Source: Microbotryum violaceum
Taxonomy: Eukaryota
DNA: 64,000 nucleotides
Direction: 5' to 3'
NCBI GenBank assembly: GCA_001244265.2
Contig: CDLV01000018.1
Location: forward strand, 372,001 to 436,000
This document shows positions 3,561-61,877 of the stretch, in pieces (position 1 is the stretch's first letter; the number at the start of each line of letters is the position of its first letter). Below the pieces are notes generated by a model. It searched no databases and was not told the DNA's origin. It was given only the letters and a program-made list of their open reading frames with translations. The translations under genes and the position numbers were made by a program.

Positions 3561-6500
3561 ATGACGTCGCCATTCGGAGCAGGCGCATTCGGAGCAGGCG
3601 CAAGTGGAGGTGATGGTGGAGCTTTTGGAGGTGGCTCCAACCATGTCACCAACCCTTTTGGAGCTAGCTCGACGGGCGTCTTTGGCGCTGCTGCTCCCTC
3701 AAGTGGTGTCTTTGGTACAGCCGCCTCGACTTCGACCTCGCCCTGGGCTTGGGGGGCTTCGACTTTGGCATCGGACAACAACCGCAATGAATCGGCCTCG
3801 AATATATCTGGTGCACCTTTGAGTGTGTTTGGATCTTTCGCCACCCCGGCATCAACCAGTGCAGCGCCACCCGCATCTGCCTTTGCCAACCTCCCTCCAC
3901 CTCGGCAGCTCGACCGCCCACCACCACCTTCCTCGGTCGCAACACCTCCTCCACCACGCGATCCCAACCAGATCTCGACTCTTGAGGTACTTGGAGAAGA
4001 CTCGGATGCAAGGAAGCAGCGATTCGAGAGCTCCCTTGCCAACAATAGATACCTCGAGGTAGGTTCCCGCTCGGTCGGCCGGGTCTTCTTCGTGCCCCGG
4101 CTGGTTCAGTGGCGCTGACCGACGACATGCATGTCCGTGTTCTGTTCTCTGTTCATACCACACAGTTGAAACCATTACGAGAAGCTCAACGCTTACGGGA
4201 CATCAAGAATGGGCTCATCCCCGATCCGCTCAAGCCGATGCGCCTCGACCAGGCGACCGACTTCCTGGGGACCTGCCAAGACATGTGTCCCGCGTGGGAA
4301 AGGGAGGAGCGAGAGTACCAAAACAACGTTGATGCGCTTGAAAGGGTCGGTGCATGGAACAGAGAATGTGCGCCATTCTTGCGAGCTCAGCGCTGACAGG
4401 CCCCCCGTCCTTCTCGCTCAGTATCCGGGTACGACTCGCATTGACCCTGCCCGAGCTGTCAAAGCATTCCATCGACCCGCAGCAGGGAACGAACAGCCTC
4501 TACCCTCGGATGTTCGACCACCGCCCGTACTCAAAAAGACGCTCGACTACCTCTTCCACCACCTCCTGCCGACCGCCCCTTTGCACGTGACCCACCCCTT
4601 CCTGCGAGATCGAACCCGGTCCATTCGCCAGGACTTGACCATGCAAAACATCCGTGGAGAGGCGGCGATTGAATGCAACGAACGCATTGCTCGCTACCAC
4701 GTTCTTGCTCTGGGCACATTGCGCGAGCAATCGAGTTTCAGTGAGAGTCAAGAGCTCGAACAATTGCGCAAGGGTGAGCACTGTTTCGCCGAGTTGGGTC
4801 GAGGCCAGACGCAGACTCACACTCGAGCTTCTTCCACACCATAGTCCTTAAATCTCTCAATGAGTTCTATGACGACGCTCGGCTCGCCAATCCACCGATA
4901 CCAGCCCCCAACGAAGCCGAGTTCCGAGCTTACAATATTCTCACCCATCTGCGCGACCCCGACATCATTTGGTCCTGCGAATTGTTACCGCCGCGCGTAT
5001 TCGACGAACCTCGTCTCCAGATCGCATTGCGGCTTCACGCTTTGGTTCAGCGCTCCAACATCCCTCGTGGAGAGCGGGCAAGTCTCAATGCCGCTTCCCG
5101 GTTTTTCAAGCTGCTGGCGAACCAAGAGGTCCCCTACCTCTTTGCCTGTATCTTGTCGACACATTTCGATCAGATCCGCAAGAACGCGCTCGAGACGATG
5201 AAGAACGCCTACATGCAACAGCATAGTGGGTTTCCTGCGCGAACGCTCGTCAAGGTTCTTGGGTGCGATGATGAGGAAGAGGTCGAGTCGATTTGCTCAC
5301 AGTTGGGGATAGGGGCGAAGAAAGAAGAGAGTGGAGAACTGGTTGTCATGCTTCATAAAGCGGCAGTGATCAAGAGTGAGTCTGATGGGAGCTTGAGTGG
5401 ACTGTGCTGTGACCTGAGCTGCACGCTTCGCTCTTTGCAGATGTCACATTGCAGCAAAGGGTGTCCCAACGTCTTGTCGAAGCAAAGCGAGGGACAACGA
5501 CCTATCAAGCCGTCATCGATGGTACGGCCTATATCTCGGCTGCCGTGCAACCCCTCCCTTCGGCATTCTCCCCGGCCGTGTTTCGAGCTCCTGCTGCCCC
5601 TGCACCCAAAAGACCTGCACCTACCCCAGCCGCCCCACCCACGTTGCTCACATCGGTCCCTCAAGTTTCACCGTTCGACATCATCAAGCCGGCCCCTGTC
5701 GAGCCCAAGATGCCCTCTTTTCAGACATCAACCCCTCTTGCGTTCAGCTCCGCCCAAGCGTCACCATCGACGACCCCACCGACCCCATCTCTCAATCCCG
5801 TTGCACCTTCATTCGTCCCAAACTTCGCTGCGAATCCAAAGCTCGCCACAACCGCTCCCAATCCCTTTGCATCTGCCTCTACAGCTTCGGCTACCTCAGC
5901 CTTTGCACCACCACCCCAGCCGAACGCCTTCTTCGCGCCTCCACCGCAGCGGACTGCACTGAAACAGGGGTCGGGCCAACTTCCCGCTCCCAAAGCGTTC
6001 AGCTTCGAGTCTGCACCCCAGCCGGCCCCAGTTGTCGAGCCGCGGAAAGCTGCCGAGCCTAGTCCCGCAAGCAAGCCATCACCTGAAGTTGTCAAATCTG
6101 TTCCGACCAAGAAGCCCAAGTCGGTCCAAGCGCCGGCCTTGCTTCCCAAGTCGCCGTCGCCGCCGAAACTTGCCAAGGTGGACCAAGGTCCTTTGATCGC
6201 GTCGCTCAGCAAGATATTCGTCGACGAGCTACTTACATCCGCCGCACGGTCGTGTGCTCAACATGCGGCCGAACAGGCCCTCGAGGATTATTGGGACATG
6301 ATTGCGCATGATGAACAAAGGACAATGGAGTACGTTGCTGCGAAGCTTGCTGCTGACCTATTGGAAGACCATGCGAGGCGCGTGACGGCGAGTGAACTCG
6401 TTCGAGCCAAGAGGCAACGACGGATGACGAGGAAAGTCTGGAACTCGTGGAGGTTGAGGACGATGTTGAGTTTGGACGCGAAGGAGAGGGATCGAGAGAG

Positions 6501-8356
6501 GAGGAAGAGGTTCGAGGAGAACGTCAGGGAGATTACGGCTTCGGTAGGGGTGGGGAACATGGCGTGGGACCAGGAGGAGGATTATTCCTTTGATGGGGCT
6601 TTGGACCTCTCGACGCTTTCGTTGGGGTTGCCAGACCTTGATGCGCCGTCGGCTTCTTCGGTCCAGGCCGATCGAGCGTTCGCCGACCAAATCTATACTG
6701 CCCAAGCAAGAAGAGACAAACTTTGGAGGTCAGGAACGATGCTTCACACTCTGGCCCAACACGTCGACTCGCTCGTGCCTACTCAGCAAACCACACGGCA
6801 AGCATGGGCCGCACTCGTCTCGACAACCTCGACCACTTCGACGTTCGCAACTTGGTTGGCTCGCAAATTCGACTTGTCCGACTTGGAACTGACGAGTACG
6901 ATCGACATGCCGCATGTCGACCTCCTTGTCGAGATGGTCGCGGACGAGAACGACCCACGCCAAGAGACCCTGGATGACGTGGGGTTGATCCTGCTCGATT
7001 GTACCGAGGAACTCGCCGCTTCGGATCTATATGCCGCTTGTCAGCGCGTTCATCGTCTTGTCGAAGCTGCGAATGAGGTTTCACGCTTCAAGCCATCTTT
7101 ACTTATCACGTGTTGCCCTTCGACGACGCCTGCGCTGGAAGAGCAAGTTGAGCTTAAACAAAAGGTGAGTAAGGTCGTTCGTTTCTTCAGCCCCGAGATC
7201 GAGCATCCCGATTGCTAAAGCAGGAACGCCATGTCACAGCTTTTGGATGAGCTTAAAATCAACTCGCTTCGGGATGGATTGCAGGGGGTGGATGTCTGGA
7301 TCGCAAGACTTGATGACGCTGAGGAAGACTTTGATAAGCTCACACGAACGGCTTTGCCGACTCTGGCGATACGGGTGGATCGGGCTAAGCGCCCTCTCGT
7401 TGGTAAGTTCGGTTCGGCGTAGCGTGCATGTGACAGCTTGGAACTGACTACTTCCGGCACCGTCAGACTTCGTGGCACCTCTTTTACGGTCTTGGTCCGA
7501 TGCGCGAGCTTTTGCATTCTCCCAACGTTGCTCAACTGACAATCGTGAGTCGAATGGTATGCCAAGGTTTTTTTTCCCGCGGGAGACTGATTCCTATCAT
7601 ATCCAGCTATCATCGCATGCAACATCCTCTTGTCGTCCTTGTCTCTGATCCTCTCTTCGGCGAAAAAGACCGCCACCGCCAACTCTCCCTTCCATCCTAT
7701 CGAATCCTTGCCACTCTTGCCGACCACATTCTCAACTTCATTCCGGAGCCGCATACAATCCTATTTATCGGACAAGCGACTCGAAGTGGTTGGACCTTCA
7801 CCTTTGCTGAATTCAGCGTTGAGCGAGTTCCCGCCCGTTACGGATGGTCAGTCACTGTGCTCATCTGTGCGTCGAAGTCGATCTCGAAGCTCATGCGTCC
7901 TTTGTTTCCTCCTACGACTTCGCAGCCACGCTCGCTCGTTTACTCTTCGACCATCTGGAAAATCGCGTTCTCTCCAGCGTGGAAGGGTATTTCATACAAC
8001 AAGATACCTACGACTATGAACTCCGGCGAACGCGCGCACGACTGGCAGAACGTGTCTTTACCCTACCCCGGGACGACGACGAGATTTCCTCTGAACCTAT
8101 CAAAGAGAATATCGCGATAGCCTCAACGACTCTCACATCGAAACAAAAGGGCAAACGCAAAGCTTCTACGTCCCTCGAGTTAGCGTTGAGCAAGAACAAG
8201 AAAACTGTTCTTGAACCCAACGGGACGACACCGTCGACGACGGTGGATCGCTTGAGCGCGTTGGAGAAGATCATGAAAGAAGCGAAAGGGTTGTTGACGA
8301 TGGGAGGTGGGGCTTTGGACACGGGTTCGAACAGTTCGAGGGTGTCGATTGTTTGA
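3561..8356 (+). CDS. SAC3: SAC3/GANP family mRNA-export (TREX-2) scaffold, multi-exon
   Basis: FG-rich N-terminus (MTSPFGAGAFG) and SAC3/GANP motifs GTCQDMCP, AVKAFHRPAAG, DVRPPPVLKKTLDYL, FLRDRTRSIRQD and ERIARYH. GT-AG introns such as 4059-4165 link the ORF pieces. Internal 3' exon boundaries are approximate. Confidence 0.9.
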
Positions 8357-11409: not shown

Positions 11410-13947
11410 ATGGCCGCATCTCAGCAGCACCCGACGGTGCCTCACGGCTCGTTCCTCAGCAGCAGCTCCTCGACGACGACCGCAGCTCCTACCCGGCCGA
11501 AACGACATGCACCACCGCCAACGAGCTTCGATGAGGACCGAAACGACCATAGCCTCCATCGGTCGACCTCGTATTCGACATCGCAGCCGTCGTCCACCAA
11601 TTCGCGAGCTTCGAAGCGGGCTCGAGCGATGACCCAAGCTCAGGCCCAAGCCGCCCAAGCCCAAGCCCAAGCCCAGACGCTCTCCCAGCCGACGCCGGCG
11701 GCTCCAGCGCAAGCGGCGCACGCGAGGGCCGGCCAGCAGCAGCAGCCGCCACCGCCGCCGCCGCAGGCAGTTCCGCTTTCATCAGGGCCATCGCAGCACC
11801 ATCCCGCCGGGGCCCCTGCGTCGACCTTTTCGGGTTTATCGACTCCGTCGGCATCGCATCGCCATCACGGTTCCCCCCACCAGCCTCGACAGGCGCCTAT
11901 TCAATTCGCAACCTCGTACAACTCAGCGTCGTCAATGAACACCTCACCCCCGCCCCCGCCTGCGCCTTCGCCGAACTCGACCCTCCTCTCCTCGGCGTTC
12001 GGCGGTGCCAACAGCAGCAGCAACAGCAACGTCGCCGCGAGCGTTTGTTCCCTCGATGACCACATGGACTCGCCCGGTGGTGCTTCCTCGACAACCGGCA
12101 CCACTCACGAGAAGGAGCAACGTAAGCAGGCTCGGATGATCCGCAATCGCAGTAAGTTCAGGCGGTGCTACTCCTCACGCTCGGTCTGCTCTCGGGTCCA
12201 TCGACTCCTGGCCTCCTGTCTTGGTGTTTGGGCGTTTTACATGGCTCTTACATGGCTCTTTCGACCATTCAATTCGGGGTCTCTCTACGGTGGTTTGCGA
12301 GCGATCTCTACCCGGGACTATTGTCCTGTCTCACAAGTCGAACTTTGGACTTGCGAGTTGCGAGCTTCACGTCCGAACGAGCTCGGAGTTTTGTGGGGTA
12401 GACGCGGGCGCGCGATAGCGGCGCGGAGGATTGGGCCGGCCCAGCCCCGCTTAGCGCCATCGTCGACTCGTCGCCTCTAGCCTCTTGTCGCGGGGACGTT
12501 TCTAGCAGGTTTGGAAAACCCGCCGGCGTTGCCATCCATACGCAACAAGGACTGCGCACCCGTCATCGTCGCTGTTCCCATACGGTCGAGCGACCAACGG
12601 TGCGACAGTCTTCTTTGGGTCAACCTCCGAGAGAACGTTTCTCCTGAACGAGCCCACGCTCGGCGCCTCCCCTGTGGCATGGCCTGAAAGGCGCCTCCTG
12701 TCTCGCACCAGAAGGGCCCTTCACAATTCCGCGCTAGTCACCTACGCCGCCTCATTTCTTCCGATATTTGCTCCGGTCATTGGCCATGCTGACCTAGATC
12801 GATTACCTCTTCCTTGAATTTTACGAACAGACGCTGCACAAGCCTCCCGCGATCGCAAAAAAGAGCACACCGTTTACCTCGAGCAGCGGGTCGCGCAGCT
12901 CGAAGCGCAGCTTGCGGTCCCCCTTCCCTTTGTGCCGCCCCCCTCCCACGGTGGGTCATCGACGCCAACCTCTCACACCTCGACCTTGCCGTCGAATCGG
13001 TCAAGTCGCTCCCATTCTGTCTCTTCCTCGACGACAAGTGTCAGTGATCACCCATCGTTGCACGGCGCAGCCTTGTCCGCGGCCTCTTCGGCGTCGGCCG
13101 CACCGTTCGCGAGCAAGATCGCCGAGCTCGAAACAGAGAAGGAGAATCTACGCACCCGCCTCCGTGCCGAACAAATGGAGTCGAGTCGACTTCGGGAACG
13201 GTTAGAGTCGCTCGAGGACAAGTTCAAGCGGTTCGAACAGTTCCTCGCCGCTCCGCTGTCGACCTCGGCCCCCGACCCCATCACCTCGCACCCGTCGCCG
13301 GCGAATGCGAACGGCTTCCCCGTCATTCCCGACACCACCTCCGCTCCCGCGCTCGGACCCGCCTGCTCGCTGAACGACGTCTGCGGTGATGATTCGATGA
13401 CGATCCGAAGCGACTTTGACGATCCCATGTCCCCCAGCGGTACATCGTACAGCACTTCGCCGTCGAGCGTGCGCTCATCGTCGCGCAAGTCGAGCCCTTC
13501 CTCCTCGGCCCACTCGTCGCCAATCAGTACACGACGCTCCATGTTGCCAAACTTGACCCCTCACTCTGATAGCTCTCGCCTCGTCGCACGCGAGGTTGAA
13601 ATTTCCCTGCCGCGGAAGCTATCAGAACGGGCCCTGTTCATCAACCTGGAGCGCTCGGCGCTGTCGCCGACCCTGTGGATCTAGTCCAGGTCGACATTAC
13701 CTCGTCGCCAGCCTCGGACCCGATCGAGGCCGCGGCTCCCCCTCAGCTCCACCTCGACAGCGAAACGATCGCCAACGCTTGGGGCGACTGGGCCAAAGGT
13801 ATCATTCAGGACCCTAACGACGACCTCACCAATGCCCCTTGCCCGCCCTCCGCACACGCGTCTCACGTTAACGACGACGAAGACGAAGACGCTTCTTTGG
13901 AATTTCTCGACCTTTCTTATCTTCAAGACGCACCGATGATGTGCTGA
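11410..13947 (+). CDS. HAC1: HAC1/XBP1-type (Hxl1/Cib1-like) UPR bZIP transcription factor
   Basis: Exon 1 11410-12151, spliceosomal intron 12152-12830 (GTAAGT...GCTGAC...CAG), giving the basic region EKEQRKQARMIRNRNAAQASRDRKKEH followed by the zipper LEQRVAQLEAQL. The unspliced frame stops at 13684. Removing the 23-nt Ire1-type intron extends it to 13947. Confidence 0.85.
13565..13626 (+). other. Ire1 unconventional-splicing RNA element (twin stem-loop; predicted intron 13587-13609)
   Basis: Outer helix TCTGATAGCT(13565-74)/AGCTATCAGA(13617-26). Hairpin 1 is CCTCG-[TCGCACG]-CGAGG and hairpin 2 is TTCC-[CTGCCGC]-GGAA. Both loops are 7 nt with G at position 3. Confidence 0.85.
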
Positions 13948-15593
13948 GCTCCATACTTGCGAAACACACGGCGAGATTGATACAGTAGGTCCTCGATACA
14001 GGCAGCGTCTAGTAATTCGAACGCTAATTGGTATCTCGTTCTTGTGAACATTCAGGTCGTAATGCCCTCAGTCTCAACTCCCACCCTTACATTTCCGCCT
14101 TCTTCTCACCATTCAACCCTGCTGTCCCCTCGCCCCTTCGTTCTCTTTCCATGACTTTCCACTTGCCCTTTGATCACTCCCGAGCCTTTTCCGGTGCACC
14201 CGCTTGCGCGTTGGTGCCGCTGATCGTCAGAGTTCGTACTCTTCCTCCATCGTGTCCTCGTTGTTCCCCGTCTCTTTGTGATTGCTCTCCTGCTGGCCCG
14301 TTCTTCGTTTACGAAGAGTGACTGTGCCTCCGGTTCGATTGAGCTTTCGCTCCGATGACGTCGGGATGACCTGGGCTACACGCGGAGGAAGCACCGACTT
14401 GGCGGCAGTGATGCCAAATCGTGTTCGGCATTTGCTGTCCGACGGGCTTCGGTTGTCTTGCATCACGGGGCTTTGGAACGGGGTGGGAAGGAGATTTTGT
14501 GGTGAGGGTTGACGCGATTGGTGTGGTCGAAGAAGTAGGGTAAGACTGGACGGAGTCGACAGGGCACGCGAGGACTATCGCATCTCCCACGAAACCGCAG
14601 CTATTGTCGAAGCTCGCAGACGAAACCGGACGTCTTTTGGAATCTTGGACTGAACTCTTCATTGAGCCTCGATCCGGACGACTCCTCATTTTTTCTCTTT
14701 CTTTCGACTTCTTTCTTCGTCCCCAACACCATTCTCTGCCACACGACCCCCACGACCGACGCGCCGTAGTACCTTCAGCTCTTGGAGACCCCAACATTTA
14801 CGACCCCCTTTTCTGTTCCACCTTCGCAACTCTTCTCATAGACGGACACGATCCATCATCGCCTTTGTTTTTTATGTTTTCTCTTTCGTTGACACGCTCT
14901 AACTCCTCCCTCGTCGCACCTTTTTTTTCTCGTTAGTTTCGCAGTTGTCACGCTGTCTCCTACCTCCTCTTTTTTGTGTGACGGGCAAGGCTCCCTCCAC
15001 CATTCTTGCTTTTTGTTTCTACTCTACTTACTACTCCACCAAACCCCCAAAATCGTCCAAAGTTACATTGCAACGCACTATTGAAAGTTCTTCTGATCAC
15101 TTTATTGACTCGAGCCAGTCGCGGATGCGCATGCTTCTTGCGAGTAGATCCGACAATCAATGTTCGATCCGATTCGCGACGGCGCGGCGCGCGTGTGCGA
15201 ACGAAGAAAGACAAAGCGACGCGCTTGGGCCTGTCTGTCTCTGCAATCTACGCGTCTCTTTGCACGTGACCATCACCCGGCTTGTCGGCGCCGGGCCTCG
15301 ACATCACACGCAGGCAACCACGTTAGCAGCATTACAAAGTGATTCAATCGTCCTCTTTCTTGACTTCCTGGCCTTGCCATTCACTAGAAGAAGCGACCGC
15401 CGGGCTTGATTGAGCCGGCGCCGACTAGCCCTCGCGAGGACTAGCGTTCGAAAAGAGGCGCGTCGAGTCGCGACGAGCCCTGGTAAGGCAGGCCATCGAG
15501 GGTGAGTGTCCCCGGCTGGCGTACTTGACATTTACCCATGACCTGACGTAGTGAAAGATTAACTGATTGCAATGTGTTTCACAGAGGATCAGC

Positions 15594-17555
15594 ATGGTCA
15601 ACATGATCAATGATCGACCGACCGAGAGCCAGGCCAAGCATGCGCTCGCGTCCTTGCTCGCCGCTGCGTTCCCTGGAGCCAACAGCACCGGCACTAGCAC
15701 TGGCTTGGGAACGACCGACCCCAATGCTGCGTCCCCTATTGGTTTCGATGCAAGGTTGGGAGCGAGCAATGGGTCTGCCACGACGGCTTCGACCTCGTCG
15801 GCGGTGACGCAGGCGTCCTCGGAGGAACTGTTGAGAGCTCTCACCCATGGAACCATATCGTCCGGATCGAGTGAAGCCAATCACCTCGTCGGTACATCGA
15901 CGTCGAATCTCATCTCACCTTCGTCCTCACCCCGAACGACGGCGCTCAGTCATACGTTGGAATTCCTCGCCGCGCAACCCAACCTCTTCGCCGGACTCGC
16001 CGTCGCTCCTCCTTCCCCCTCGGCGCATGTCAGTCGAAATCATCCCCCTGTATCCTACACCCCCCTCCCAACTCGATCAGGTCGAGTACCCCATGCTCCC
16101 AAAGCCGCAACGACCACCGAAACCGATCGCGAAACGATGCTCTTCAACGATTATTTCGACTGGCCCAGTTCAGACGAGGACGATCCGGATTTTCAACCCG
16201 GTCGAACGAACCTCGCATGGGACGATGGCTTGTTCGATCTTGGGACCGCAGGACCGAGTAGTGGTGGCACGAGATATATCTTCTCGCCTGATGAAGAGGG
16301 GGATGAGGAGGGAGAATCGGATTATAGTGCGGTCGATGAGACTTTCACGCCGGGGGAGGGGTTGGTCGATGTTGATTTCGGACCGTTGGTACCGAAGTCG
16401 GTTTCGCCGACGGCGGTGGGGACGCCGCATTCGAGGGAGTTGAGGTCACGGACACTTCAGTCATCTTCTGGACCCAATGCACGATCGATCGACGAACTTG
16501 CGGTCGGATCGAGTGCAGATCGAGGTCCGCCGCCTCCCTCGAGCACATTCGACGTCACCCTCGCACCTGCTCTCGCTCCAACCCGATCCAAGCGACCGAC
16601 CACTACCCCAAAGATCGACAAATTTACCTCTTCCTCTCCAGCTCGAACCTCCCCTCGCAAGAAAGCTCGAATTCACCTATCCCCCATGACCGAAGAAGAT
16701 GATCGAGCGACGCCTATCGCCTCGACCTCCCAACTTCCCTCCACTCGTCCGAACGAAGCCAGCGTAGCTTACAAATACGTGGATACTACCACGACGACGT
16801 ATTCGGATTTGCCACCGGGGATGGCGAGGTTGAAGAAATCGGCGGGTTTGGGTCCGGCGCCGCAGCCGAAACCGAAAAAGAGAAAGGTCGTAGCGCATCC
16901 TCCTCCACCGCCACCACCGCTACCAGAGGGGTCATCGCATCAAGGAAGGATCCAGGGTCGTGTGGTAAATTTAGATCGCGAGATCTCTACGAACAAGTTG
17001 GAGAATACGCTTCACTCCAACGTTTCCTCAACTCCTTCTCAAGCCTCCCCCGATCCCCGCTCCGGTTCGATGACGGCCGAAGAGAAACTTGAAGCAAGAC
17101 GCAAGAAGAATCGGGAAGCGGCGAAGGAGAGCCGGTTGAAGGCTAATCGGGAGAGGGTGGAGAAGGAGGAGAGGTTGGTTTTTTTGGAGAGGGAGTATGT
17201 TAGGTTGACGAGGAGGGTGAGGGAGTTGGAGGAGGAAAGGAGGGGAGGGGGGAGTGACCGGAGCGTGGGTAGGGATGCGGACGGGGATGGGGTTGATGAT
17301 GGGGACGGGGAAAGCATGGTTGATAGTTTGGAAGATAGTGAGGAGGAGAATGAAGAGGAGGAGCCCGGGGGTGGGGAGGAGGAAAGGGGCAAGACTGCGC
17401 AGGAGAGAGGAACCCGGGCTGCAGGTGGGAGTGGGGCTGGGGCTGGGGCTGGGGATGATAGAGGTGCATCACGAGCGGGTTTCGATCTGGGTCAGTTGAC
17501 GCAGCATCAGTTGAGGGAGCTGAGTAGGTTGTTGGCTTCCGCGACGAGGAATTGA
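15594..17555 (+). CDS. bZIP transcription factor
   Basis: Long ORF with TAEEKLEARRKKNREAAKESRLK...LVFLEREYVRLTRRVRELE and acidic/aromatic patches (FNDYFDWPSSDEDD). First ATG at 15594, just after a probable upstream intron (about 15483-15584). Confidence 0.8.
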   Translation: MVNMINDRPTESQAKHALASLLAAAFPGANSTGTSTGLGTTDPNAASPIGFDARLGASNGSATTASTSSAVTQASSEELLRALTHGTISSGSSEANHLVGTSTSNLISPSSSPRTTALSHTLEFLAAQPNLFAGLAVAPPSPSAHVSRNHPPVSYTPLPTRSGRVPHAPKAATTTETDRETMLFNDYFDWPSSDEDDPDFQPGRTNLAWDDGLFDLGTAGPSSGGTRYIFSPDEEGDEEGESDYSAVDETFTPGEGLVDVDFGPLVPKSVSPTAVGTPHSRELRSRTLQSSSGPNARSIDELAVGSSADRGPPPPSSTFDVTLAPALAPTRSKRPTTTPKIDKFTSSSPARTSPRKKARIHLSPMTEEDDRATPIASTSQLPSTRPNEASVAYKYVDTTTTTYSDLPPGMARLKKSAGLGPAPQPKPKKRKVVAHPPPPPPPLPEGSSHQGRIQGRVVNLDREISTNKLENTLHSNVSSTPSQASPDPRSGSMTAEEKLEARRKKNREAAKESRLKANRERVEKEERLVFLEREYVRLTRRVRELEEERRGGGSDRSVGRDADGDGVDDGDGESMVDSLEDSEEENEEEEPGGGEEERGKTAQERGTRAAGGSGAGAGAGDDRGASRAGFDLGQLTQHQLRELSRLLASATRN

Positions 17556-18731: not shown

Positions 18732-20062
18732 CTTGATGAGATGGAGGTGGAAGTGGAGCGGGAGAGAGCCGGACCGGAGCAGCGCAGTCCAAGCGAGATC
18801 AATCGAGACTCGGAGTTGGTTAGTAAGATCCAGGGTCTACCAAAAAAAAGGCCTCGCTCCGTCTTAATAACACGCCCTAGTGTTTTTTTTTTGTTCTTTT
18901 CTTTTCCAAACTGTAGTATAAGCCGGCATAATTCGGCGCGACTCGGAGGCTACTACGCACTTTCGATGCCCCTTTTCCGATGCCGCGACTCGACGTGATC
19001 GGAAATCGTCCACGGCACCGTTCCAGTTTCGTTGTGAGAATGCTCGGGTTTACCAGGACGTGGGCTCGTGCGGAATTTGAGGAGATTTTATTCAGATTGT
19101 ATGTGCTTCTAATCCATAGTCGGTCCGATCTCAGCTCTTGATCATCCAACCACCGGGCCAACTTGTCATGTGCCATATAGTAACCGATTGAACTAAGCCT
19201 AGCCTAGCGCGCGTCGACTCTGCACGCGCCCGTGCGTCAGACTGTGTGGATGACCGTGTGACGACCCGGCTGATCGTCTGCGCTGACTCGGCCACCTGAC
19301 TCGGCACCTCACGGCCTCACACTCGGCTCTGGCCATTTCGTGCGCCGGCTCCGAAGATGGTCGCTGCACCCATGTCGTCCTCGAATACGACGTCGATGAG
19401 CAATGGTATGAATGGTCGGAATGGCGCGAGTGGTGGGCATCGAAGGTGAGCTTTCCTGGAGTTTGGGTCGGAAGAGTGCAGTAGCTATCATCGTCGTCGT
19501 CGTCGTCGTCTGTCGGTTCGTCGTCCGTTCGTCGGTGGGGGCGAGTCGTACCAACGCGACGCGTGGCGCTGCTGCGATGGCACGGGCCATGGCAACGCTC
19601 AGGGCAGTGTACCTGGTCTTTCCAGCCCGTGCACATGTGCTGGAGTCCCATGTGCATCGTGACTGCTCTGGCCTAGTTGCTCTTGGTGCTGCACTGCCTT
19701 TCGGGCCTCGGCGCTCGACGCTCGCCGGCCCGCCACGTGAGGCCTCTCCGTTCGCATCGAAGCGCCCCTGCAACTGGCCTTCTGCGCACGGACTCGACAG
19801 CCTGCGGCGCTGGCAGAAAAAGTGGTGACGTGTAGAAAAGACGTTCCCAACATCAAAATATTCTCCGTGCCTTTCCGCGGCTACCCACGAACTACCAAAG
19901 CCGAAGCCGAAGCCGAGGGTGAAGCACCGAATTGACTCATGGCTCGGCCTCCTCGGGCCCTTCCGAACTTGCAGAGCTCGCTCGGTCGCCCAGAACATCG
20001 ACCCGGCATCCCTGGTGGCGTCTACTCCCTCACCTCCTCCACCTCCACCTCCCTCGACCTCA

Positions 20063-22729
20063 ATGATGTCACCTTTCACCTCGAGGTTGTCCGCGTCGAC
20101 CCCGCCTCCACCTTCGACGTCGCCCAACCACCATCAGCAGCAGCAACACCAACGCCGAGCCCAGTCCGTGTCGTACCTCCAAAGCGCATCCCCGTACTCG
20201 CCCACACGCGACTATGACCCATCAGACTACACACCCTCGGGCTACTTCGCCCCCGTCGTTGCTCCAGTCACTTCTACCACTGTCTCCTCGAATGCGAACG
20301 GGAATGGCAACGGCAGCCCGTATCTGGCTCCGGTCCCCGTTACCCCACCTACGTCCAATCCGTCGGCCTCGAACAATCCTAATCCGCACAAGCGGCGACA
20401 CCACAGTCTGCACAACCTCGGCCCACTCATGGTCCCGTCACCGCCACGGCCAAGTCTGAGCACACCACCACCCCATGGTCTGTCGTCGTACATCATCGAG
20501 GAGGAGAACGAAGAAGAGGTTGCCGAGGCCAACAAACTTCCTACAGCGCCCAAGGCCGACGACGACGACGATGAAGACCAATTTCCCGTCGAAGAAGACG
20601 ACGAAGAGTCTTTCCTTCCTTTGCCATCCCCGAATTCGTCGTCGATGCTGTTCCAGGTCCCACCGACAACAACGGTTGCGAGTTCGGCCACCTTGTCCCG
20701 GACCGAGCATGCGCGCTCCCACTCTCGCATCCACGAACGTAACCTCTCCGTGTTCTTCCCGAGACCAGGTCAAGCGGCGCAAGGCTATGGCGACACCTTT
20801 TCCGATCCGAATGCGTCGACCTCGACCTCGACCTCGGCACCCGCACCCGTCGTGGATATCTCTTCCCCGACGTCGAGTCGAGCGTCGGACAGTCGATCCC
20901 CACCTCCCTCCAAATCACGGCGAGGGCATCACCACAAGCATTCCGTCTCGCACAACTTCTTCTCCTTCATGGAACCAGGGCAAATACCGCAGAACGGTAC
21001 CTCGCCTGTTTCACCACCAATGGCGCATGGTCGTCGTGCCTCGATCGCGAATGCCTCGGGCCATGCCGCCGCCATGCCCTTTCCCAAGCAATCCCACCTC
21101 CGGCACAAGCATGCTGGCTTGCCTTCGCCGCTTCGCTTCTTCATCCTCTCGGTTTTCTACCTTCCCTCGTCGACGCGCGGTCAGTTGTTGCTTGCTGTGG
21201 GACAGGTCGTGTTGGGCGCTTCGCTGTGGATCACGGGGCAAGCCGCCGAGGCACTGAGTGTCACAGGTCTCGGCTACCTCATCGTCTTTGATGGCCTAGG
21301 TGCCTTGTCACGGATTTTTGTCGATGGTGCGAGAGGGATAGACGCCCTTTTGGGTGCCTTTGGAAGCGGGACGGGCAACTCGAGCATGCGAACACCCTAC
21401 GGCAGTCGACGCCTCGTCACTCTGTCCCACTTCTCGCAAGCGATCTACCTCCTCTTCTCGGCCGTCTACGTCTGCAAGGAATCCGTCGAGCATGTATTGT
21501 TACTACATGGAGGAGCCGAGCATGGTGGAGCTCACGGAGCAGGACATGGTGGGATGGGTCACGGTGAGGCAGGAGCGGGGATAACGGCGCCTGGTGCGCA
21601 TGGAGGTTCGACGAGCGTCTTGGAGGAAGGCATTAAGTTCCCCGTCGTTCTATTGGCCCTTTCAGCGACGTTGACGTTGCTGACGTCCATCATGATGAGC
21701 AATCATTACGCTTTGGCTCAGGCGATCGGTCCGACGTCGTCTTCTGCGGCGATGCTTCCTTCGAGACCGAGACCTTTGAGCAGCTTGAGGGGTCCTTCGG
21801 TGGTTGAGAAGGTTATGAACCCGTTCACGGCTACGATCTTGATGTTCAGTGTGGGATTGTGCGCAGCGGGGCTGACGATTCCAGGGTGAGTTTTGCATAT
21901 CTGCCTCTCCCTCGCCAAGTGCTTGAGGCTCTGGCTCACACCTTAATGATTTACGCTTCTGCAGAGCCCAATTGGCGCCGCTGGACAAGGTCGTGGCGTT
22001 GATGCAATCGATCGCCATGTTCTACGTTGCATACCCGGCCGCGGTTACGACGGGTCAAGTCCTACTACAAACCGCACCTGATCCCGATTCGCTCAATTCG
22101 AAAGCTTTGCAGAGTGCTGTGCGAGATGTGAGTGACGTCGATGACGCGTACAAGGTGTTATTTACAGGGTAGGCGTGCTGATGTGAGGTTTCGTGGGATT
22201 TTCGAACCAGATCGAAAATCACCCATTGGTCGTCTCCTTGGACCGACCGCACGTATGGCAAATGATCACCCACCCCGCCTCTCTAAATGCCTCCTCGTCG
22301 ACGAACCCCACCCCTTCAAACATCAACCCCTCCCAATCCGACGGCGGCGCCTCCCTCATCGCGACCCTAGTCGTGCACGTCAAAGCCTCTTGTACAGACG
22401 CCGACATCTTAGCCGTGACCAAGTTTTGCCGTGAACGATGTAGAGGACCGTTGAGGTTGGGGGATCAGGGACCCGATGCGCCGAATGAGAGGTTTGGTGA
22501 GGTGACGGTTCAGGTTGTGAGGGAGAAGAATGGCGGAGGGGGCTATTGGGTTCAGGGGGATGGGGCGAAGGGAATTGATGTGGAGTATTTGAGTCATGGC
22601 GTGGAGCAGGGGCATGGGCAGGGGCAGGGGCAGGGGATGGATGGTGCTGCTGCGGACGGTGGGCACGGGCATTCACATGCCTTGAAGCAGGGGCATGGAG
22701 GACATGGGGGGCATTCGCATGCGCATTGA
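20063..22729 (+). CDS. Cation diffusion facilitator (CDF) zinc transporter, Zrg17/ZnT5-7-like
   Basis: HARSHSRIHERNLSVFFP and HHHKHSVSHNFFSF motifs, several TM helices, VCKESVEHVLL, GQVLLQTAP, HVWQ and a His-rich tail. Introns near 21886-21963 and 22128-22210. Confidence 0.85.
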
Positions 22730-25044: not shown

Positions 25045-26727
25045 TCAAGATTCCTCAACCCAAAGTTCATCCCACACCCTCGGCCCCGCTTCGATCGCGA
25101 CTCCCCCTTCCCCCGCAACGGCATACAAGTTCGCCATCCTCTCCAACAACTCCTTCCTTTCTCTCAACACATCCCTCAGATGATCGACCGTCTTCCCCAA
25201 AACGACAGCTTCGGACTTGGGTCCGGCCCTTCCATCAATCTTCTCTCCCCCAATTTCGATCCCTCCGCTCAAAGGACCTGAACCCCCTTCCGTCTTTGAA
25301 GATGATGGCGTTTTCGAATCGTTGGTGGGTACAGCAGCGCCTTTCTTAACGGCCGAAAGTTTCTTGACCCTCTCGTCGAATTCCTCGATCGCGGCTCGAA
25401 GACTAGGTACGATCACGCAAAGCGTTTCGTAACCATGTCGAATCGCCGCACGTCTTTTCTGTTCCGAAGCGATGTGGTTCGCCTTCTTTTGTTCGGCCGT
25501 GAGAAGACCCGGTTTACCTCCGTTCGAAGCGGTCAATGAAGCAGAGGACGTCGAGGATGGAGGAACGGGAGGTGCTTTCAGTAATCGACGAGGTGTGAGT
25601 TTCGGATAGGGTACATTCGATGAGGGAAAAGGTATATTGGAAGGAGTCAATGCCGGACCGGGGTTGGGCGATTCTGAATCGGTTGAAGAGAGCGAGCCTA
25701 GGATCGTGGTTGAGGTTGAAGCACGAGGTCCATTCCTATGCGGTGAGGCGCAAAATTTGGTACTACTATTCACGCTCGTAGTGGGTGTTTTTCGTTTCGT
25801 CGGTCGAGATGCAGATGGAGGCTGTGCGATGACTTGCGAAGAGCTCGTCGATGCGACGGGTTGGTGCAACTTCTCGGCCAAGTGAACAGGCCGCATCGTC
25901 ATGGGTGAGGTCTGCAACATCATCTTGGTCGTAAAGCCGTTAACTGGCGCATTCGAGATGGGTAGAAGATCCAAAGGGATGGGTACGGTCGTCGCTGTAC
26001 TCGTTTCCATCAGCGTTGGAACCGGCATTCTCCCCGCCGTATACCTCTGCGTGAATTGGGCCTTCTCCTCTGCGGCCTTGAGGCGAGCGAGGTCGTCGTT
26101 CGACGAGGAGGAAGGCATATTTCGTTCGGTCGCGTTGGGCATGTCCATCAAAGGTGTCGAGGTCAGGATGACACGTCCTCGCTTGTTCGGACTTTGTTCC
26201 TGCCGAATCTCGCTCGAGGCTTGTCGCGTTCGGCGAGCTTCTGCTTCCACCGCGTAAAAATGGGATGAAGGCCCAGCTTGTGGTGCGTACTTTGCTGCGG
26301 ACGCAAAGTCGGGCATGGAGGATGCCGATGGTTTCGATGCGGTGAACTCTTTGACCGACGCGGCGGATCTAGACCTCATCCAATCGGCCAATTCTCTCGT
26401 CTGTTGCGCCATCCTAGCTAGTTTTTCCTGATCGAGCAGTTCGGCGGCATGACTCGGAAAACTAGGTGGGATCTGATCCGAGTAAGATTGGGATTGATTC
26501 TGCGATTCGGGTGGGTTCATTATCGTTTGGGGTGGGGGTGGGATGAGGGTTGGGTTGGGAAAGAGAAATTCCGAATTGGTGGCGAGGCGAGGTCGAGTCG
26601 TGAAGGTCGAATAAGCTTGAGGGAGATGGTGCGTCGAAGAAGTTGACGCATGGGGTAGGTCATGATCTACCGTATCGAGGAAAAAGCTGAACTCTTTCGA
26701 GTCTTCAGGGGAGAGGATTGCTGCCAT
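25045..26727 (-). CDS. bHLH(-ZIP) transcription factor, Ino4/Mlx-like basic region
   Basis: LLTAEQKKANHIASEQKRRAAIRHGYETLCVIVPSL...KSEAVVLGKTVDHLRDVLRERKEL. Single long ORF, first ATG at 26727. Confidence 0.85.
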   Translation of the reverse strand: MAAILSPEDSKEFSFFLDTVDHDLPHASTSSTHHLPQAYSTFTTRPRLATNSEFLFPNPTLIPPPPQTIMNPPESQNQSQSYSDQIPPSFPSHAAELLDQEKLARMAQQTRELADWMRSRSAASVKEFTASKPSASSMPDFASAAKYAPQAGPSSHFYAVEAEARRTRQASSEIRQEQSPNKRGRVILTSTPLMDMPNATERNMPSSSSNDDLARLKAAEEKAQFTQRYTAGRMPVPTLMETSTATTVPIPLDLLPISNAPVNGFTTKMMLQTSPMTMRPVHLAEKLHQPVASTSSSQVIAQPPSASRPTKRKTPTTSVNSSTKFCASPHRNGPRASTSTTILGSLSSTDSESPNPGPALTPSNIPFPSSNVPYPKLTPRRLLKAPPVPPSSTSSASLTASNGGKPGLLTAEQKKANHIASEQKRRAAIRHGYETLCVIVPSLRAAIEEFDERVKKLSAVKKGAAVPTNDSKTPSSSKTEGGSGPLSGGIEIGGEKIDGRAGPKSEAVVLGKTVDHLRDVLRERKELLERMANLYAVAGEGGVAIEAGPRVWDELWVEES

Positions 26728-27995
26728 TGTGTGTCTCTTCGAAGGAGGAGGGGCGCGCAATCACGAGAGGTTGTTCCTTTCCTACGGTCAGGCCAAGCTC
26801 AGGACGACGACGACGACGAGAAGATCGGCGTGCGGTGCATCCACCCGACTTTGCACCAGGGTCTTCTCTTGAGCTAAAGACGAGTACACGCCTCGAATGT
26901 CTGTCGATCTAATGTGCTTCCGTTCGGTGCCTCAGTTGCCGATTCGGGTTCTGGCGCAGACGCCGACCACGGTAGACGATCTCGACTGCTTGCGCGCGCC
27001 TGAAGTAGCGCTGTACCGCGGGCTGCGCTGTAGGAGATGGGCCAGATGGAGTCAGTACATGAGTGTGTAGAGTGGTGTGCGACTATGACGTGGAGCTTGC
27101 ATTGCAAGTGACTGCTGGTGGAGCTTGCTGGCCAATGAGGCAGCTGACCCAGACCACCCACCACCCACACCCGGTGCGCACGGCCAAGCCACAGCCCAGA
27201 CGCCAATCTCATCCCAAAAGTCAGGAACCAATAGTACTCACAATCAGCAAGGTCTTCTGTAGCTACTCCGTGAACGAAAGAGGGTGAAACCTCGTTGCAC
27301 GCGGGTCGGAGGCGTCGATCTCGAGCTGACCGACTGACCGGCTGAGTGGTTCAAGCTGAGTCCGAGTGGGAGAGTCAGTAAGCGCGGGAGTGATTGCGCC
27401 GAGCGCCGCCGGCTGGCAGACTGGAATGGAGCAGATTGGAGCGTGATACCAAGTCGCCGTTTGCTTATAAACGCGGCGCGCTTGCATGCTGTGTTCGGCC
27501 AACAATTCCAGAGCTGATTTTTTCGGACTTTGACAGGCAGATGCCATTAGTGCATAGGTCCGTGCACGTTTCGACACTAACCAGAAATGGAAGTCGACAG
27601 GCGAATAACAGGCTGTGCAACGTCCTCCAAGTTTTCAAGTTCTCGGCCAGCCTCGACCGAGTGACTGACCCGTTCAACAAGCGTGTCATCGGAAGCCGTC
27701 AAGGTACTAGTATTGCAGTTATCAGCGGGGAAAAATTGCTCCGATCATTGCATGGCAGGCGTATTTTTTGGTGGGAATTTCAGCCTACACTACTGCACAA
27801 GAGTGCAATTGTAGGTCGAAAATGTAGTCGAGCCTAGAGAGCGGGAGGAGGCCGAGCCCCGCCGACGTCAGCCAGGTCACGAGGTCCGAGCGTTGGGCGC
27901 CCAAGAAGCACCGAGGTCACTCACTCGGGCGTGCGCCTCGTCCTGCCTCACCGACCTTCCCCAACCTCGACGCGTGCAATTTTGACGAGCACAAG

Positions 27996-49081: not shown

Positions 49082-52000
49082 TCACAACATGAGAGAGTTG
49101 GATTGGATCGTCGGTCTGCAAGCATGGTTCAGGAAGACAGAGTCAGTACAGAGCCCATAGCGAGGAACACAGAACGAGGCTGCTCACCTTCCAATGGCCG
49201 AAGTGTCTATCAGTCCGTTAGGGCCACGAACAATGTTGACCCGCCGCGGGCCCTGGCGCATGTCCGAGGAGCTCGGTGACGAGCCACTGTTGCTCTGCGT
49301 AGAGAAACGCCACCAGCTACCGCGACTGCCGCCGCCGGTGGTATGGCTCGGCCCCGCACTCGCAAGGCCGCTAAAGTCGATGCTCGTCTGCGTTCCTCGG
49401 CAATCCGAGGCCATCGCACCGGCACGATCAGAGACACCCGAGCTAACGGTCGAGGGCGATCGAATCGAGTCGCCGTCGTCACGCAGTTGCAGTCGACCAC
49501 CTCCGAGCTGGAACGCGCGCAAGGTCGGGTCCATGTCGCGGCGTTGGTAATACTGGTTCGACGGGGCGCCACCACGGCCAAAGCGACCGCCATCGGAGCC
49601 GAGCGCAATCGCACCCTCCTTGGTCGCCCTCCACGCGAGGTACCCGGCGATGACGAGTAAGATCACACCGCAGGTCACGACGACTGCGATGATGATCGTC
49701 TTCGAGTTGTCTTTGGCAGCGGTGATTAGTGTACCATTGGCGGCGATGTTGGCCGTCGATCCACCAGACTTGGCGAGTGACGAGTACGACGTGACCGAGA
49801 ACGAAGGGACGAATTGTTGCGACAGCTGACCAGCGACGCCCGATTGACGGTAGAGGGGACTGTTGGCCGCCTTGAGCATCGCCGCGAGGGTGTCGACATA
49901 GCTCGAAGGGAGCTTGGCGAGGTAGACCGACAGGATCGTGTCCTTGGAGTTCTCGTCGTACGACGCCTGTTGGTACGCCTGCAACGCCACGGTCTGCACT
50001 TGGTTCTCCGAGATGCCGAGCGCCTGCGCTACGATCTTGGGCATGTAGTACAGAACCTGACTCGACGCGTCCGAGTTTTGAACGAGCCACGTCCAGGGCA
50101 GCGCATCGCTGAGCAAAATCGAGACGATCGTCGTCGGCACCGAGGTACCATTGACCTGCACCTCGGACGTGGTCGAGACCAAGTCGGACTCCGCGGGGAT
50201 GATGCGACTCGGGAGATCGGTCGGGAACGTCACGGCGCTCGTGATGGTCACCTGAGGCGTGCCGTTGAGAAGGATCGTTGTCGCTCCGGCGCCAGCGGCG
50301 GTCGTCGAGGTCGTGCTCGTCGCGTCGGTCTTGGTCGGCGTGGAAGCCTGCACCAACAGAGTCGAGGTAGGGACCCAGGGTGCGGGGGGCGAGACCGAAG
50401 CTTCGGACGTGGCCGTCGTCGAAGTAGGCGCGGCGCCCTCCTTGGTCGACGAAGTATCCGGCGCTTCAGTCGCACCCGAAGTCGACGCTGTGCTCGAAAC
50501 GGCGGCACCCACAGCTGAGGTTGTGACGGAAGCAGCGGGTTCCACCGATGCTGCCGCACCCGAAGTCGACGCTGTGCTCGAATTGGCGGAACCCGCGGCT
50601 GAGGTTGTGACGGGGGCGACGGGGTCCACCGATGCTGCTGGAGTCGAGGAGGTGGCGGTAGGCGCCTGAGCCGGGGTTGTGGCCCCGGCTTCCGTGGCTG
50701 TCGTCGTCTCGGCCGAGCCTGCGGTGGGGAACACTGACGGGAACAGACTCGACAGCTGACTGAGAATCGCAGTCCCTTGCGGTGTCGTGGGCGTCGTCTG
50801 CGGGTCACCACTGGAGCCCGTCGTCTGGGCCTGGGGCGGCGTCGTTCGAGCAGGTGGGGTAGACGCAGATGGCTGCTGCCCTTGGGCGTTCGTCGTTTGA
50901 GCGGGAGCACCGGTAGTTTGCGATGGGACCTCCGAAGTCGTCGTCGTCGGGACCGGGATTAGAGTGGGGATCACAATCGGGATCGAGAGCGAGATCAGCG
51001 GAGCAGTCGTCGGCGTCGGCGTGACGGGCGTCGCAGCGGGGGTCGTCGACGGTGCAAGGGTCGGCAATGCGGCGTCTCCAGCGCTCGTCGTCATCGCAGC
51101 CGGCGAAGTTGTGGGGGCAGAATCGTCCGCGGTCGACGTCGGGACGGGGATCAGCGTCGGGATGATGATCGGGATCGAGAGCGAAATCAACGGGCTCGTG
51201 GTGGTTGCCGCATCCGTGGTCGTGGTCGTGGTCGAGGTCGAGTCAGGGCCATCGGTCGAGCCTGCGGCACTGGACGTTATCGGCGTGGTGTCGTCCGATG
51301 TGGTGGTGGTGGGCGTCGCAGACGCTACCGCTCCATCATCGGCGGACGTCGTTGTGCGTGAAGCTGCCGGGCTGGCCGTTGCCGTGGTCGACTCCGAGTC
51401 CGCAGTGGTCGATTGCAACGGGGGAAGACCCGACAGCTGCCCTCCCATCCCTCCAACGATCGACAAGATGCTCGAATACATGCCGCTCTCCTGTGTCGTC
51501 GTCATTGACGAGGGAGTTATGGTCGTTGGGGTGGTAGTGGACGCCGAGCTCGTTGTCGGTGTAGCATCGTCCGTCGTCGTTGAAGTGAAGGATGCTGCGT
51601 CCGACGTCGTCGAGCCCCTGGTGGTCGAGCTCGAGCTCGAGTCGTCGTTCGATGTGGGAGACGCCCTGACACCTCCTCTTCTGCTTGTGGGCTCGTCCGA
51701 TGAGGAGGAATCGCTTGACGAGGATGTCGTCGTAGGTGAGGCCGTCGGAGGAGACGCAGGTTCCGTATCGGACGTGCGAGCGCGGCCCCTTGTTGTTGTC
51801 GGGGTTACGGTGCTGTCATTGGTCGAGGACGAAGTGTCGTCCGACGAACTGGACGTCGTTCGCTGTCTCCTCGAGGTCGTCTCGCTGTCGTCGACCGGGG
51901 CCGAGGTGGGCCGCGACCTATCGGATGTATCGGTCGTCGAGCTTGTTGACCTCTGATCGTCTGATGTCGACGAGTCCGAGGAAGAGCTCGGCAGGGATGT

Positions 52001-52796
52001 GGTCGACCTCGGCAGGCGTGATGTCGACGTCGAGACCGCGCCAAGGATCGACGTGATGTTGACGGTGGAACCATCTCGAAGCACGCTTTCATAGATCACT
52101 GCACAGGTGGGAATTGTCGGCAATGTTGTGTTCAGTCAACTATCTTGCGGTCGTTGTAAAAGGTGTGACTGGCACGGAGTCGCCCGGTTTCTTGTTTCTC
52201 GACTGGCAGCAGCACGCTTTCCTCACACGCGCTCAGAACGCGCCCGAGCAAACGCGCCTGGCCCCGCGCACGCGCTTTCCAAGTGGCTGCGCAAAAGGGC
52301 CCGCGCCCACGCCCGCTCCCTTTCCAGGCGCGGCCCGGCGCGTGCATCGACCAAGAACGCGGGCGATCCGAGCACCCGTGCGCGACCCCGAACCGCCGCG
52401 GGCGTGATCCAACTCCTGGGCCACTGTGGCGGCCAGCGAGAAAGGAGACGCCCCCGAGGCGGTGACCGAGGAGAGGAGCGCCTGCTAAAGCAAAGCATAA
52501 AGGAGGGACCCACCTTCAACAAGCTGGTTCCCGTTGCGATCTTGGGTCGTGGTGACGAGGATGGCGTCGTCGTCGCTGACCACTCGGGCGCGCATGGCAG
52601 CAGCGGCAGAGGATGCACCTGCTCGTGCTCGAGGTCGACGAGCCGGCGGCGGCGTCTGCTTCGGCGCAGCTGCAGCGAGCACACGGCGCCGCTGCGCATG
52701 GTTGGGTGCCGCGTTCGCATCCGCCAACACCACTGTCGAGGTCGAAAGCAGCAGTGACAGGATCACAGCACTTGTCCATGTCGATGAACGAGGCAT
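49082..52796 (-). CDS. MSB2: Msb2/Hkr1-type signalling mucin
   Basis: Signal peptide MPRSSTWTSAVILSLLLSTSTVVLA, long S/T/P region, HMH-like domain (LPSRIIP...LPWTWLVQNSDASSQVLYYMP...LPSSYVDTLAAML...SPLY), one TM helix, and spliced tail IGRPTIQSNSLML resembling the Msb2 C-terminal motif. Confidence 0.85.
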
Positions 52797-61644: not shown

Positions 61645-61877
61645 CGCTGCACTGTGCTTTACTGACGGGGTGCGGATGACGCGGGTGGGGGAGAGCGAAC
61701 GGGCGAAAGGCACGGCCGTGTACGACCGACCTCTGGCAGGCTGAGCTCAGCCGAGCGCTGGCCGAGGCCGAGACCGACTGCGAAGCGCGATCGGCTCGGT
61801 TCACGTTGATCATCGATCGTCTTTCGGCCTCTGGTTACTCCTTTCCCCACGCTCACCCACACGACGCGATTTCCAAC

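Follow-up and report, generated by a model that had tools for sequence, protein, structure and literature searches.

The gene at positions 11410 to 13947 of the analyzed window (64,000 nt of Microbotryum violaceum contig CDLV01000018.1, to which all coordinates refer) is very probably a real HAC1/XBP1-type UPR switch of Microbotryum, of a kind that is expected in this fungus. An earlier sequence-only reading had proposed an Ire1/HAC1-XBP1 switch at this place, and conservation, covariation, frame logic, coding selection in the tail and spliced products of relatives supported it. The core switch is expected biology; the variant traits are the non-consensus 5' site, the 17-nt introns of relatives and two conserved features of the 3' UTR.

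The database match of the gene was MVLG_04330 of Microbotryum lychnidis-dioicae (database protein P0001; 531 aa, 100% identity over the exon-2 query), a species placed in Pucciniomycotina by taxonomy look-up, and only the unspliced 531-aa form is annotated. The gene model runs from the ATG at 11410 through a GT-AG intron (12152-12830) to the stop at 13684, giving 531 aa. Excision of 13587-13609 leads to 611 aa with the stop at 13947. The features of the coding part are as follows.

11410-12151 (+): coding exon 1, with a low-complexity N-terminus and the first half of the basic region of the bZIP (gene model, RNA-derived contigs)
12109-12913 (+): bZIP domain, residues 234-275, split by an intron (Pfam bZIP_1; coordinates from the gene model)
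12152-12830 (+): spliceosomal GT-AG intron of 679 nt within the bZIP (joint 12151>12831 in runs X11 and X2)
12831-13586 (+): coding exon 2 up to the 5' cut (gene model, RNA-derived contigs)
13565-13574 (+): outer exon-exon helix, 5' arm (pair probabilities, two-sided changes)
13576-13579 (+): predicted post-cleavage zipper, 5' half, partner 13612-13615 (fold of the joined ends)
13579-13595 (+): 5' splice-site hairpin, loop UCG/CACG (the slash marks the cut), non-consensus
13587-13609 (+): 23-nt unconventional intron (comparison with relatives; retained in the contigs of this species)
13604-13616 (+): 3' splice-site hairpin, loop CUG/CCGC, consensus
13617-13626 (+): outer helix, 3' arm (exact reverse complement of the 5' arm)
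13587-13684 (+): unspliced C-terminus, 32 codons including the junction Ala, no transmembrane-like stretch
13610-13947 (+): spliced C-terminus, acidic, with conserved W..W and F-L-D-L motifs and a terminal Cys

The encoded protein is mostly of low complexity. Its bZIP scored above the cut-off with Pfam bZIP_1 (E 4.3e-08) and likewise with bZIP_2, and it is encoded upstream of the 23-nt intron, as in HAC1 and XBP1. The matches of the family profile included proteins named 'transcriptional activator HAC1' (E 7.7e-11 and 3.6e-10); some relatives were automatically named X-box-binding protein 1, and the best PDB matches of the bZIP were CREB. The window carries one copy of the gene, and no clear cluster of UPRE motifs was detected in the 1.1 kb upstream of it.

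As in HAC1/XBP1 mRNAs, two hairpins at the exon-intron borders are held together by an exon-exon helix. The coordinates of the sequence-only reading were all borne out, with loops at 13584-13590 and 13607-13613, cuts after G13586 and G13609 and stops at 13684 (unspliced) and 13947 (spliced), and the segment 13587-13609 has neither a GT nor an AG end, as had been claimed. The 5' stem has 5 bp. A perfect 10-bp outer helix together with a 4-bp 3' stem had also been described; the arms are indeed exact reverse complements, but A13617 was counted in both elements, so that stem and helix are either 3 and 10 bp or 4 and 9 bp. Since both cuts fall between G and C, the gap may equally be placed one base to the left or right.

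Pair probabilities calculated in a 300-nt context were 0.96-1.0 for nine of the ten outer pairs and 0.6 for the tenth, 0.90-0.97 for the 5' stem and 0.71-0.75 for the 3' stem, and the folding z-score was modest (-2.4). A chance scan used two 7-nt loops with G3-C4, stems of at least 3 bp and an outer helix of at least 7 bp as criteria. The plus strand gave two matches, the site itself (outer helix 10) and one overlapping it (outer helix 7), and no twin hairpin was found on the minus strand of the window. Forty dinucleotide shuffles of the window yielded one match in total, none with an outer helix of 10. A search of Rfam gave no HAC1/XBP1-type match for positions 13000-14200 (three chance-level matches) and no match at E 10 for positions 13540-14420. 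Weak Rfam C/D-box snoRNA matches were located at 13381-13489 (+) within coding exon 2 (SNORD15, E 0.032); they were far below the gathering score and are most likely due to chance.

When metagenomes were scanned with the bZIP peptide alone, 22 loci were obtained, four of which end before the site. The twin hairpin was detected in all 18 loci that reach it, by unconstrained local alignment and then by a free-spacer pattern. The intron was 23 nt long in 12 of these loci, 17 nt in four, 29 nt in one and 22 nt in one (L006), a T run of the last being one base shorter than in its close relatives. Of the 17 loci for which downstream sequence is available, 16 gain an acidic tail on excision, the exception being L002, which has a further frame shift. 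The 22-nt length in L006 and the second frame shift in L002 may be assembly errors. Conservation of the structure and of the downstream frame in orthologues, with compensatory changes, had been named as a check of the proposal, and the loci support it.

Covariation was analyzed with 14 distinct sequences. Among these, 86% of the cells were paired compared with 36-48% for slid controls, and two-sided changes occurred at 11 of 18 pairs, a level reached by none of 500 shuffles, although these figures overstate independence because the loci are related (about 11 lineages by eye) and the structure was taken from the window. Both sides had changed in seven of the ten pairs of the outer helix. In the 5' hairpin, 100% of the cells were paired and four of the five pairs showed a two-sided change. 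By analogy with ES1 of XBP1, 13576-13579 and 13612-13615 can pair as a zipper stem after cleavage; here 53 of 56 cells were paired, with no two-sided change. A covariance model detected one site in each of the 19 sources, training sequences included, and nothing else in them below E 0.8.

The 17-nt introns are located at L010:2708-2724, L020:10323-10339 and L021:10599-10615 and also occur in L022 and for the proteins P0055 and P0063, and only 2-3 nt lie between their two hairpins. From the proteins P0115-P0153 and the loci L010, L012, L021 and L022, Microbotryomycetes appear to hold a second HAC1-like subfamily (basic region RMERNRIAAQ) with the same unconventional intron.

The intron lacks spliceosomal ends, and its removal exchanges the C-terminus for a conserved tail, as in HAC1 and XBP1. 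The highest 19-residue hydropathy of the unspliced tail was 0.33. The spliced tail contains 21 D/E and 2 K/R in 111 aa, its pattern of W..W and F-L-D motifs was matched by 40 of 58 homologues, and it is a putative activation domain. Comparing L005 with L002, the substitutions in the tail were silent in 23 cases and not silent in six when read in the spliced frame, and 2 and 27, respectively, in the unspliced frame. In four of the five pairs compared, silent changes predominated in the tail when it was read in the spliced frame, and the fifth pair had only four changes. In a related RNA-derived contig, indels summed to multiples of three, including 6 nt in the tail. Openness of the unspliced frame beyond chance was unsupported locus by locus in 13 sequences (P 0.03-1.0). 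The unspliced frame often ends with Arg-Arg 7-10 nt past the spliced stop (13 of 52 unspliced-frame proteins; L010:3041-3048, L012:10848-10855, L021:10938-10948), which requires conserved bases in the 3' UTR of the spliced form. This Arg-Arg end could be a degron or a signal for pausing in the unspliced protein.

Contig sets from four of the 12 listed runs, none of which is on record as RNA, were compared. Those of X11 and X2 are RNA-derived, X10 retains both ordinary introns and the contigs of X1 do not cover the site. In the X11 and X2 contigs both ordinary GT-AG introns were removed, and the sequence was unbroken over 12831-13984. No 23-nt gap at 13587-13609 was present in these two contig sets, whose stress condition is unrecorded and from which rare forms are dropped; as the contigs represent the commoner form only, splicing in this species is neither shown nor excluded by them.

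Products of both forms were identified in relatives. P0056 and P0057, two proteins from sequencing-run assemblies, share 186 residues and then diverge, and an exact loss of 23 nt fits both to one DNA sequence for 106 of 106 residues, compared with at most one residue for other lengths. P0056 clustered with a Cronartium protein. P0081 fitted a 23-nt loss at 96 of 96 residues relative to P0064 and P0080, and at 95 of 96 relative to P0079. On these protein comparisons, two rust-type genes occur in both forms, exactly 23 nt apart at the junction. The Leucosporidium model ORY80201.1 carries the exact junction and presumably rests on a transcript. Protein P0160 of Atractiella displays the signature of such a 23-nt intron. 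Intron lengths derived from peptides ranged from 17 to 32 nt; they are 3n+2 by construction and were therefore not used as evidence.

It could be argued, as the majority of public models for relatives imply, that the downstream frame is reached through an ordinary spliceosomal intron, either of the GT-AG type or of the GC-AG type with 23 nt and a shift of three bases. There are 35 frame-switching GT..AG pairs on paper around the site, the exact junction occurs in none of the 47 named Microbotryomycete models, 40 of which reach the tail by another route, and the junction of the R. toruloides NP11 model P0052 seems to be the one that a GC-AG intron would give. However, the contigs continue through the site while both true GT-AG introns are gone from them, and the handling of the site by gene models varies between species. 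In this species the 3' site lacks an AG, and the three exact-junction products read Ala-Ala instead of Ala-Pro. We therefore consider a spliceosomal origin very unlikely. The same models bear on the expectation that gene callers would annotate only the uninduced form, which held for this genome (531 aa) but mostly not for its relatives, where those 40 models reach the tail otherwise.

A -1 ribosomal frameshift, by which the tail would be reached without RNA cutting, has a negligible probability. Relative to the upstream frame the tail is read at -1, and an A3-U3-C run occupies 13599-13605, but the phase of this run is wrong for a slippery heptamer and it belongs to the intron part that is most variable among relatives, and products lacking the 23 nt exist in relatives.

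As a HAC1/XBP1-type switch, the gene would work in several steps. The two ordinary introns are removed in the nucleus, as seen in the contigs, and the mRNA mainly retains the 23 nt, at least in the contigs, and would encode a bZIP protein without the acidic tail. Upon ER stress, Ire1 would cut after G13586 and G13609 in the loops of the three-helix structure. The exon ends would then zip into a longer helix and would be joined by a Trl1-type tRNA ligase, as known from HAC1/XBP1 biology. With the excision the frame moves to the acidic-aromatic tail, and the resulting 611-aa protein would be the active factor that switches on UPR genes.

The 5' loop is the point at which this gene departs from known systems. 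In the window it is UCG/CACG, which differs from CNG/CNGN at -3 and +3. The 18 loci displayed UAG/CACG (15), CAG/CACG (2) or CAG/CACA (1), so the G at -1 and the C at +1 are kept and the G at +3 is absent from the window and all 18 loci. The yeast and animal 5' consensus CNG/(C or A)NGN in a 7-nt loop is thus not matched, and for this reason the gene was filed as a variant of HAC1/XBP1-type mRNAs. The sequence-only reading had called the architecture established, and the deviation of the 5' loop from the published consensus had passed unremarked in it. The 3' loop matches CNG/CNGN, being CUG/CCGC in the window and CUG/CMGC in 18 of 18 loci; it was part of the locus search pattern, and the unconstrained alignment found the same places.

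A pair U13584-G13590 was predicted (p 0.84), which would leave a loop of 5 nt. The bases at -3 and +4 are able to pair (U-G or C-G) in all loci except L010. The 5' loop of this lineage is, on the predicted folds, probably a 5-nt loop closed by a Y-R pair. According to passages of PMC6037481, Ire1 of S. cerevisiae requires CNG/CNGN or CNG/ANGN in a 7-nt loop, Ire1 of S. pombe cuts loops of 3 to 9 nt, and Ire1 specificity differs between species. A relaxed S. cerevisiae Ire1 mutant accepting CNG/NNGN still kept the C at -3 and the G at +3, as stated in part of PMC8104961. The acceptance of 3- to 9-nt loops by S. pombe Ire1 makes a shifted specificity plausible. Two Tremellomycete-type bZIPs (P0191 and P0203) have a similar peptide signature, a 47-nt spacing and a Val before the 5' cut, and their peptides are hinting at a U at -3 beyond Pucciniomycotina.

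The odd 5' loop would also be explained if the structure were genuine and spliced, with an RNase different from Ire1 doing the cutting or with splicing taking place irrespective of ER stress. The loss of the G at +3 in the window and in 18 loci fits such a process, and no canonical alternative 5' loop at 3n+2 spacing was found in 15 sequences (L001 has one at 51 nt). Against this, the 3' loop fits the consensus perfectly in all loci, the three-helix layout and the zipper match XBP1 as described in passages of PMC4687415, and the specificity of Ire1 is known to vary among species, with S. pombe Ire1 taking loops of 3 to 9 nt (PMC6037481, in part). We give this explanation very little weight, and cutting by Ire1 is preferred.

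Downstream of the induced stop, the following features were identified.

13985-14055 (+): spliceosomal GT-AG 3' UTR intron of 71 nt (joint 13984>14056 in X11 and X2)
14284-14292 (+): E1, 5' half of a bipartite element, core CUCUCCY
14331-14344 (+): E2, 3' half, GG-Y2-4-GA-U1-2-GAG, pairs with E1 across two bulges (covered by RNA-derived contigs)

The 3' UTR intron begins 37 nt past the induced stop. A donor-branch-acceptor pattern 16-38 nt past this stop was found in nine of 13 sequences compared with one of 94 control windows, and was missing from L001, L011, L015 and L016 among the 13 scanned. Such an intron might gate the unspliced mRNA into nonsense-mediated decay. With respect to the 50-nt rule of this pathway, the exon junction lies 300 nt past the unspliced stop and 37 nt past the spliced one. 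The intron position is conserved, though UTR introns of Cryptococcus were reported to be poorly conserved in passages of PMC5006051. However, in six (L003, L005, L010, L012, L020 and L021) of the nine lineages or loci that combine the intron pattern with an intact tail frame, the unspliced stop is at most 17 nt from the spliced stop, so both forms of the mRNA would be treated alike. Moreover, the unspliced form is the one assembled here, and retained-intron transcripts of Cryptococcus mostly escape the pathway according to part of PMC5006051. Gating by decay is thus an unlikely role for the 3' UTR parts.

E1 and E2 were traced from 8-mers shared among the 3' UTRs, as multiple alignment of whole UTRs was uninformative. 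E2 was exact in 12 of 18 sequences and had a variant form in L001; it was not found in L011, L016 and L017 (325-454 nt available) or in the short L002 and L022. Pairing of E2 with E1 across the same two bulges occurred in 10 of 11 folded UTRs (probabilities 0.37-1.0), and the interval between them formed a variable hairpin of 38-520 nt. This interval folded better than shuffles in nine loci (z -3.3 to -7.6), and in the window z was only -1.6. Shuffling of the interior was a weak control in the window, L014 and L021, where pairing was kept in 56 of 60, 19 of 20 and 43 of 60 cases, and a stronger one in the other seven, where it was kept in 3-22 of 60. Among 23 matches of E2 in 392 kb (both strands), the 12 in these UTRs all had E1 upstream and the other 11 had none. 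Being nearly invariant, the core of E1 and E2 shows no covariation by itself. The UTR intron and the element are both present in L010, L012 and L021, which were assigned to the second subfamily; therefore, these features would predate the duplication.

Two conserved motifs joined in a 3' UTR stem-loop are also the design of the S. cerevisiae HAC1 3'BE, in which two short motifs are juxtaposed (passages of PMC4279078 and PMC6116095). The yeast element brings HAC1 mRNA to Ire1 clusters, as stated in parts of PMC4279078, PMC6116095 and PMC6627864. E1 and E2 pair at the base of their hairpin, unlike the yeast motifs, which are described as lying at the distal end of theirs. By this analogy, the chances are about even that the paired motifs help to deliver the mRNA to Ire1, and targeting by the duplex, as its design and conservation suggest, would complete the mechanism given above. 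It is also conceivable, though rather doubtful, that Pucciniomycotina re-wired the splice, with the off-consensus 5' site being cut only because of the address provided by the 3' UTR duplex, which would possibly be armed by splicing of the UTR intron. If true, fungi outside the yeasts would have an independent Ire1-targeting element, the second in fungi as a whole, and the history of splicing in the nucleus would be linked with Ire1 splicing in the cytoplasm.

Among known systems, metazoan XBP1 mRNA shares with this gene a short frame-shifting intron in a coding exon, an outer helix with two arm hairpins, cutting after the loop G3 and an extension helix (ES1) after cleavage (passages of PMC4687415). 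The XBP1 5' loop is C(C or U)G/CAGC, whereas that of this lineage is YNG/CACR; the unspliced tail here has no hydrophobic stretch, and the conserved 3' UTR intron and paired element are further differences. The hacA/hac-1 genes of filamentous ascomycetes and HAC1 of C. albicans (introns of 19-23 nt) are likewise fungal bZIP genes with a short 3n+2-type frame switch, and differ in that the 5' loop here is non-consensus. The lower end of 19 nt is reportedly taken from Hooks and Griffiths-Jones 2011. The 17-nt introns of the relatives L010, L020, L021 and L022 are below this limit as quoted in part of PMC6222058, and the Neurospora hac-1 intron has the same length as the one here, 23 nt (passage of PMC13703316). 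HXL1 of Cryptococcus neoformans likewise combines a single ordinary intron close to the bZIP with an Ire1-spliced intron downstream; in contrast, the latter intron has 56 nt and is bordered by CAG on either side, and the bipartite element of yeast was reported as undetected in HXL1 (both in passages of PMC3154848). HXL1 and cib1 of Ustilago maydis, the counterparts of HAC1 in these basidiomycetes, belong to the same phylum, and the present gene comes from a third subphylum, Pucciniomycotina.

No description of this intron in Microbotryum, red yeasts or rusts was found among the top-ranked literature matches, although earlier surveys or supplements may cover some of the sites. The passages of two R. 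toruloides papers (PMC12278674 and PMC11134681) mention HAC1 only in passing. The analysis puts a name to the likely master regulator of the UPR in anther smuts, red yeasts and rusts and gives its exact splice sites; the industrial host Rhodotorula toruloides is among the red yeasts concerned. It implies that nearly all public gene models in these groups have a wrong C-terminus. The steady loss of the G at +3 of the 5' site is a natural test of what Ire1 reads, and the conserved 3' UTR duplex provides a handle on how Ire1 finds its mRNA in fungi outside the budding yeasts.

In many red yeasts the gene is present in two near-identical copies, 5-8 locus tags apart (for example ACM66B_005465/005470, JCM10213_007852/007858, JCM10908_005050/005055 and AAT19DRAFT_9960/9967), a pattern that points to a local segmental repeat. 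Literature searches gave no support for a connection between these duplicated copies and the mating-type locus. In R. mucilaginosa (P0094), a thioesterase-like gene adjoins one copy.

Directly downstream of the gene in the window, a second, unrelated bZIP-like ORF is located at 15567-17555 (+), with a Pfam bZIP_2 match below the cut-off (E 0.0016). The other neighbours are ordinary and are located at 4170-7218 (+), 25045-26760 (-), 19829-22729 (+), 57926-58720 (-), 61680-62813 (+) and 49184-52135 (-). They include a SAC3/GANP protein, a bHLH factor, a cation-efflux-like protein, a protein kinase and a cytochrome c heme lyase, and a further neighbour is a long Ser/Thr-rich mucin-like ORF.
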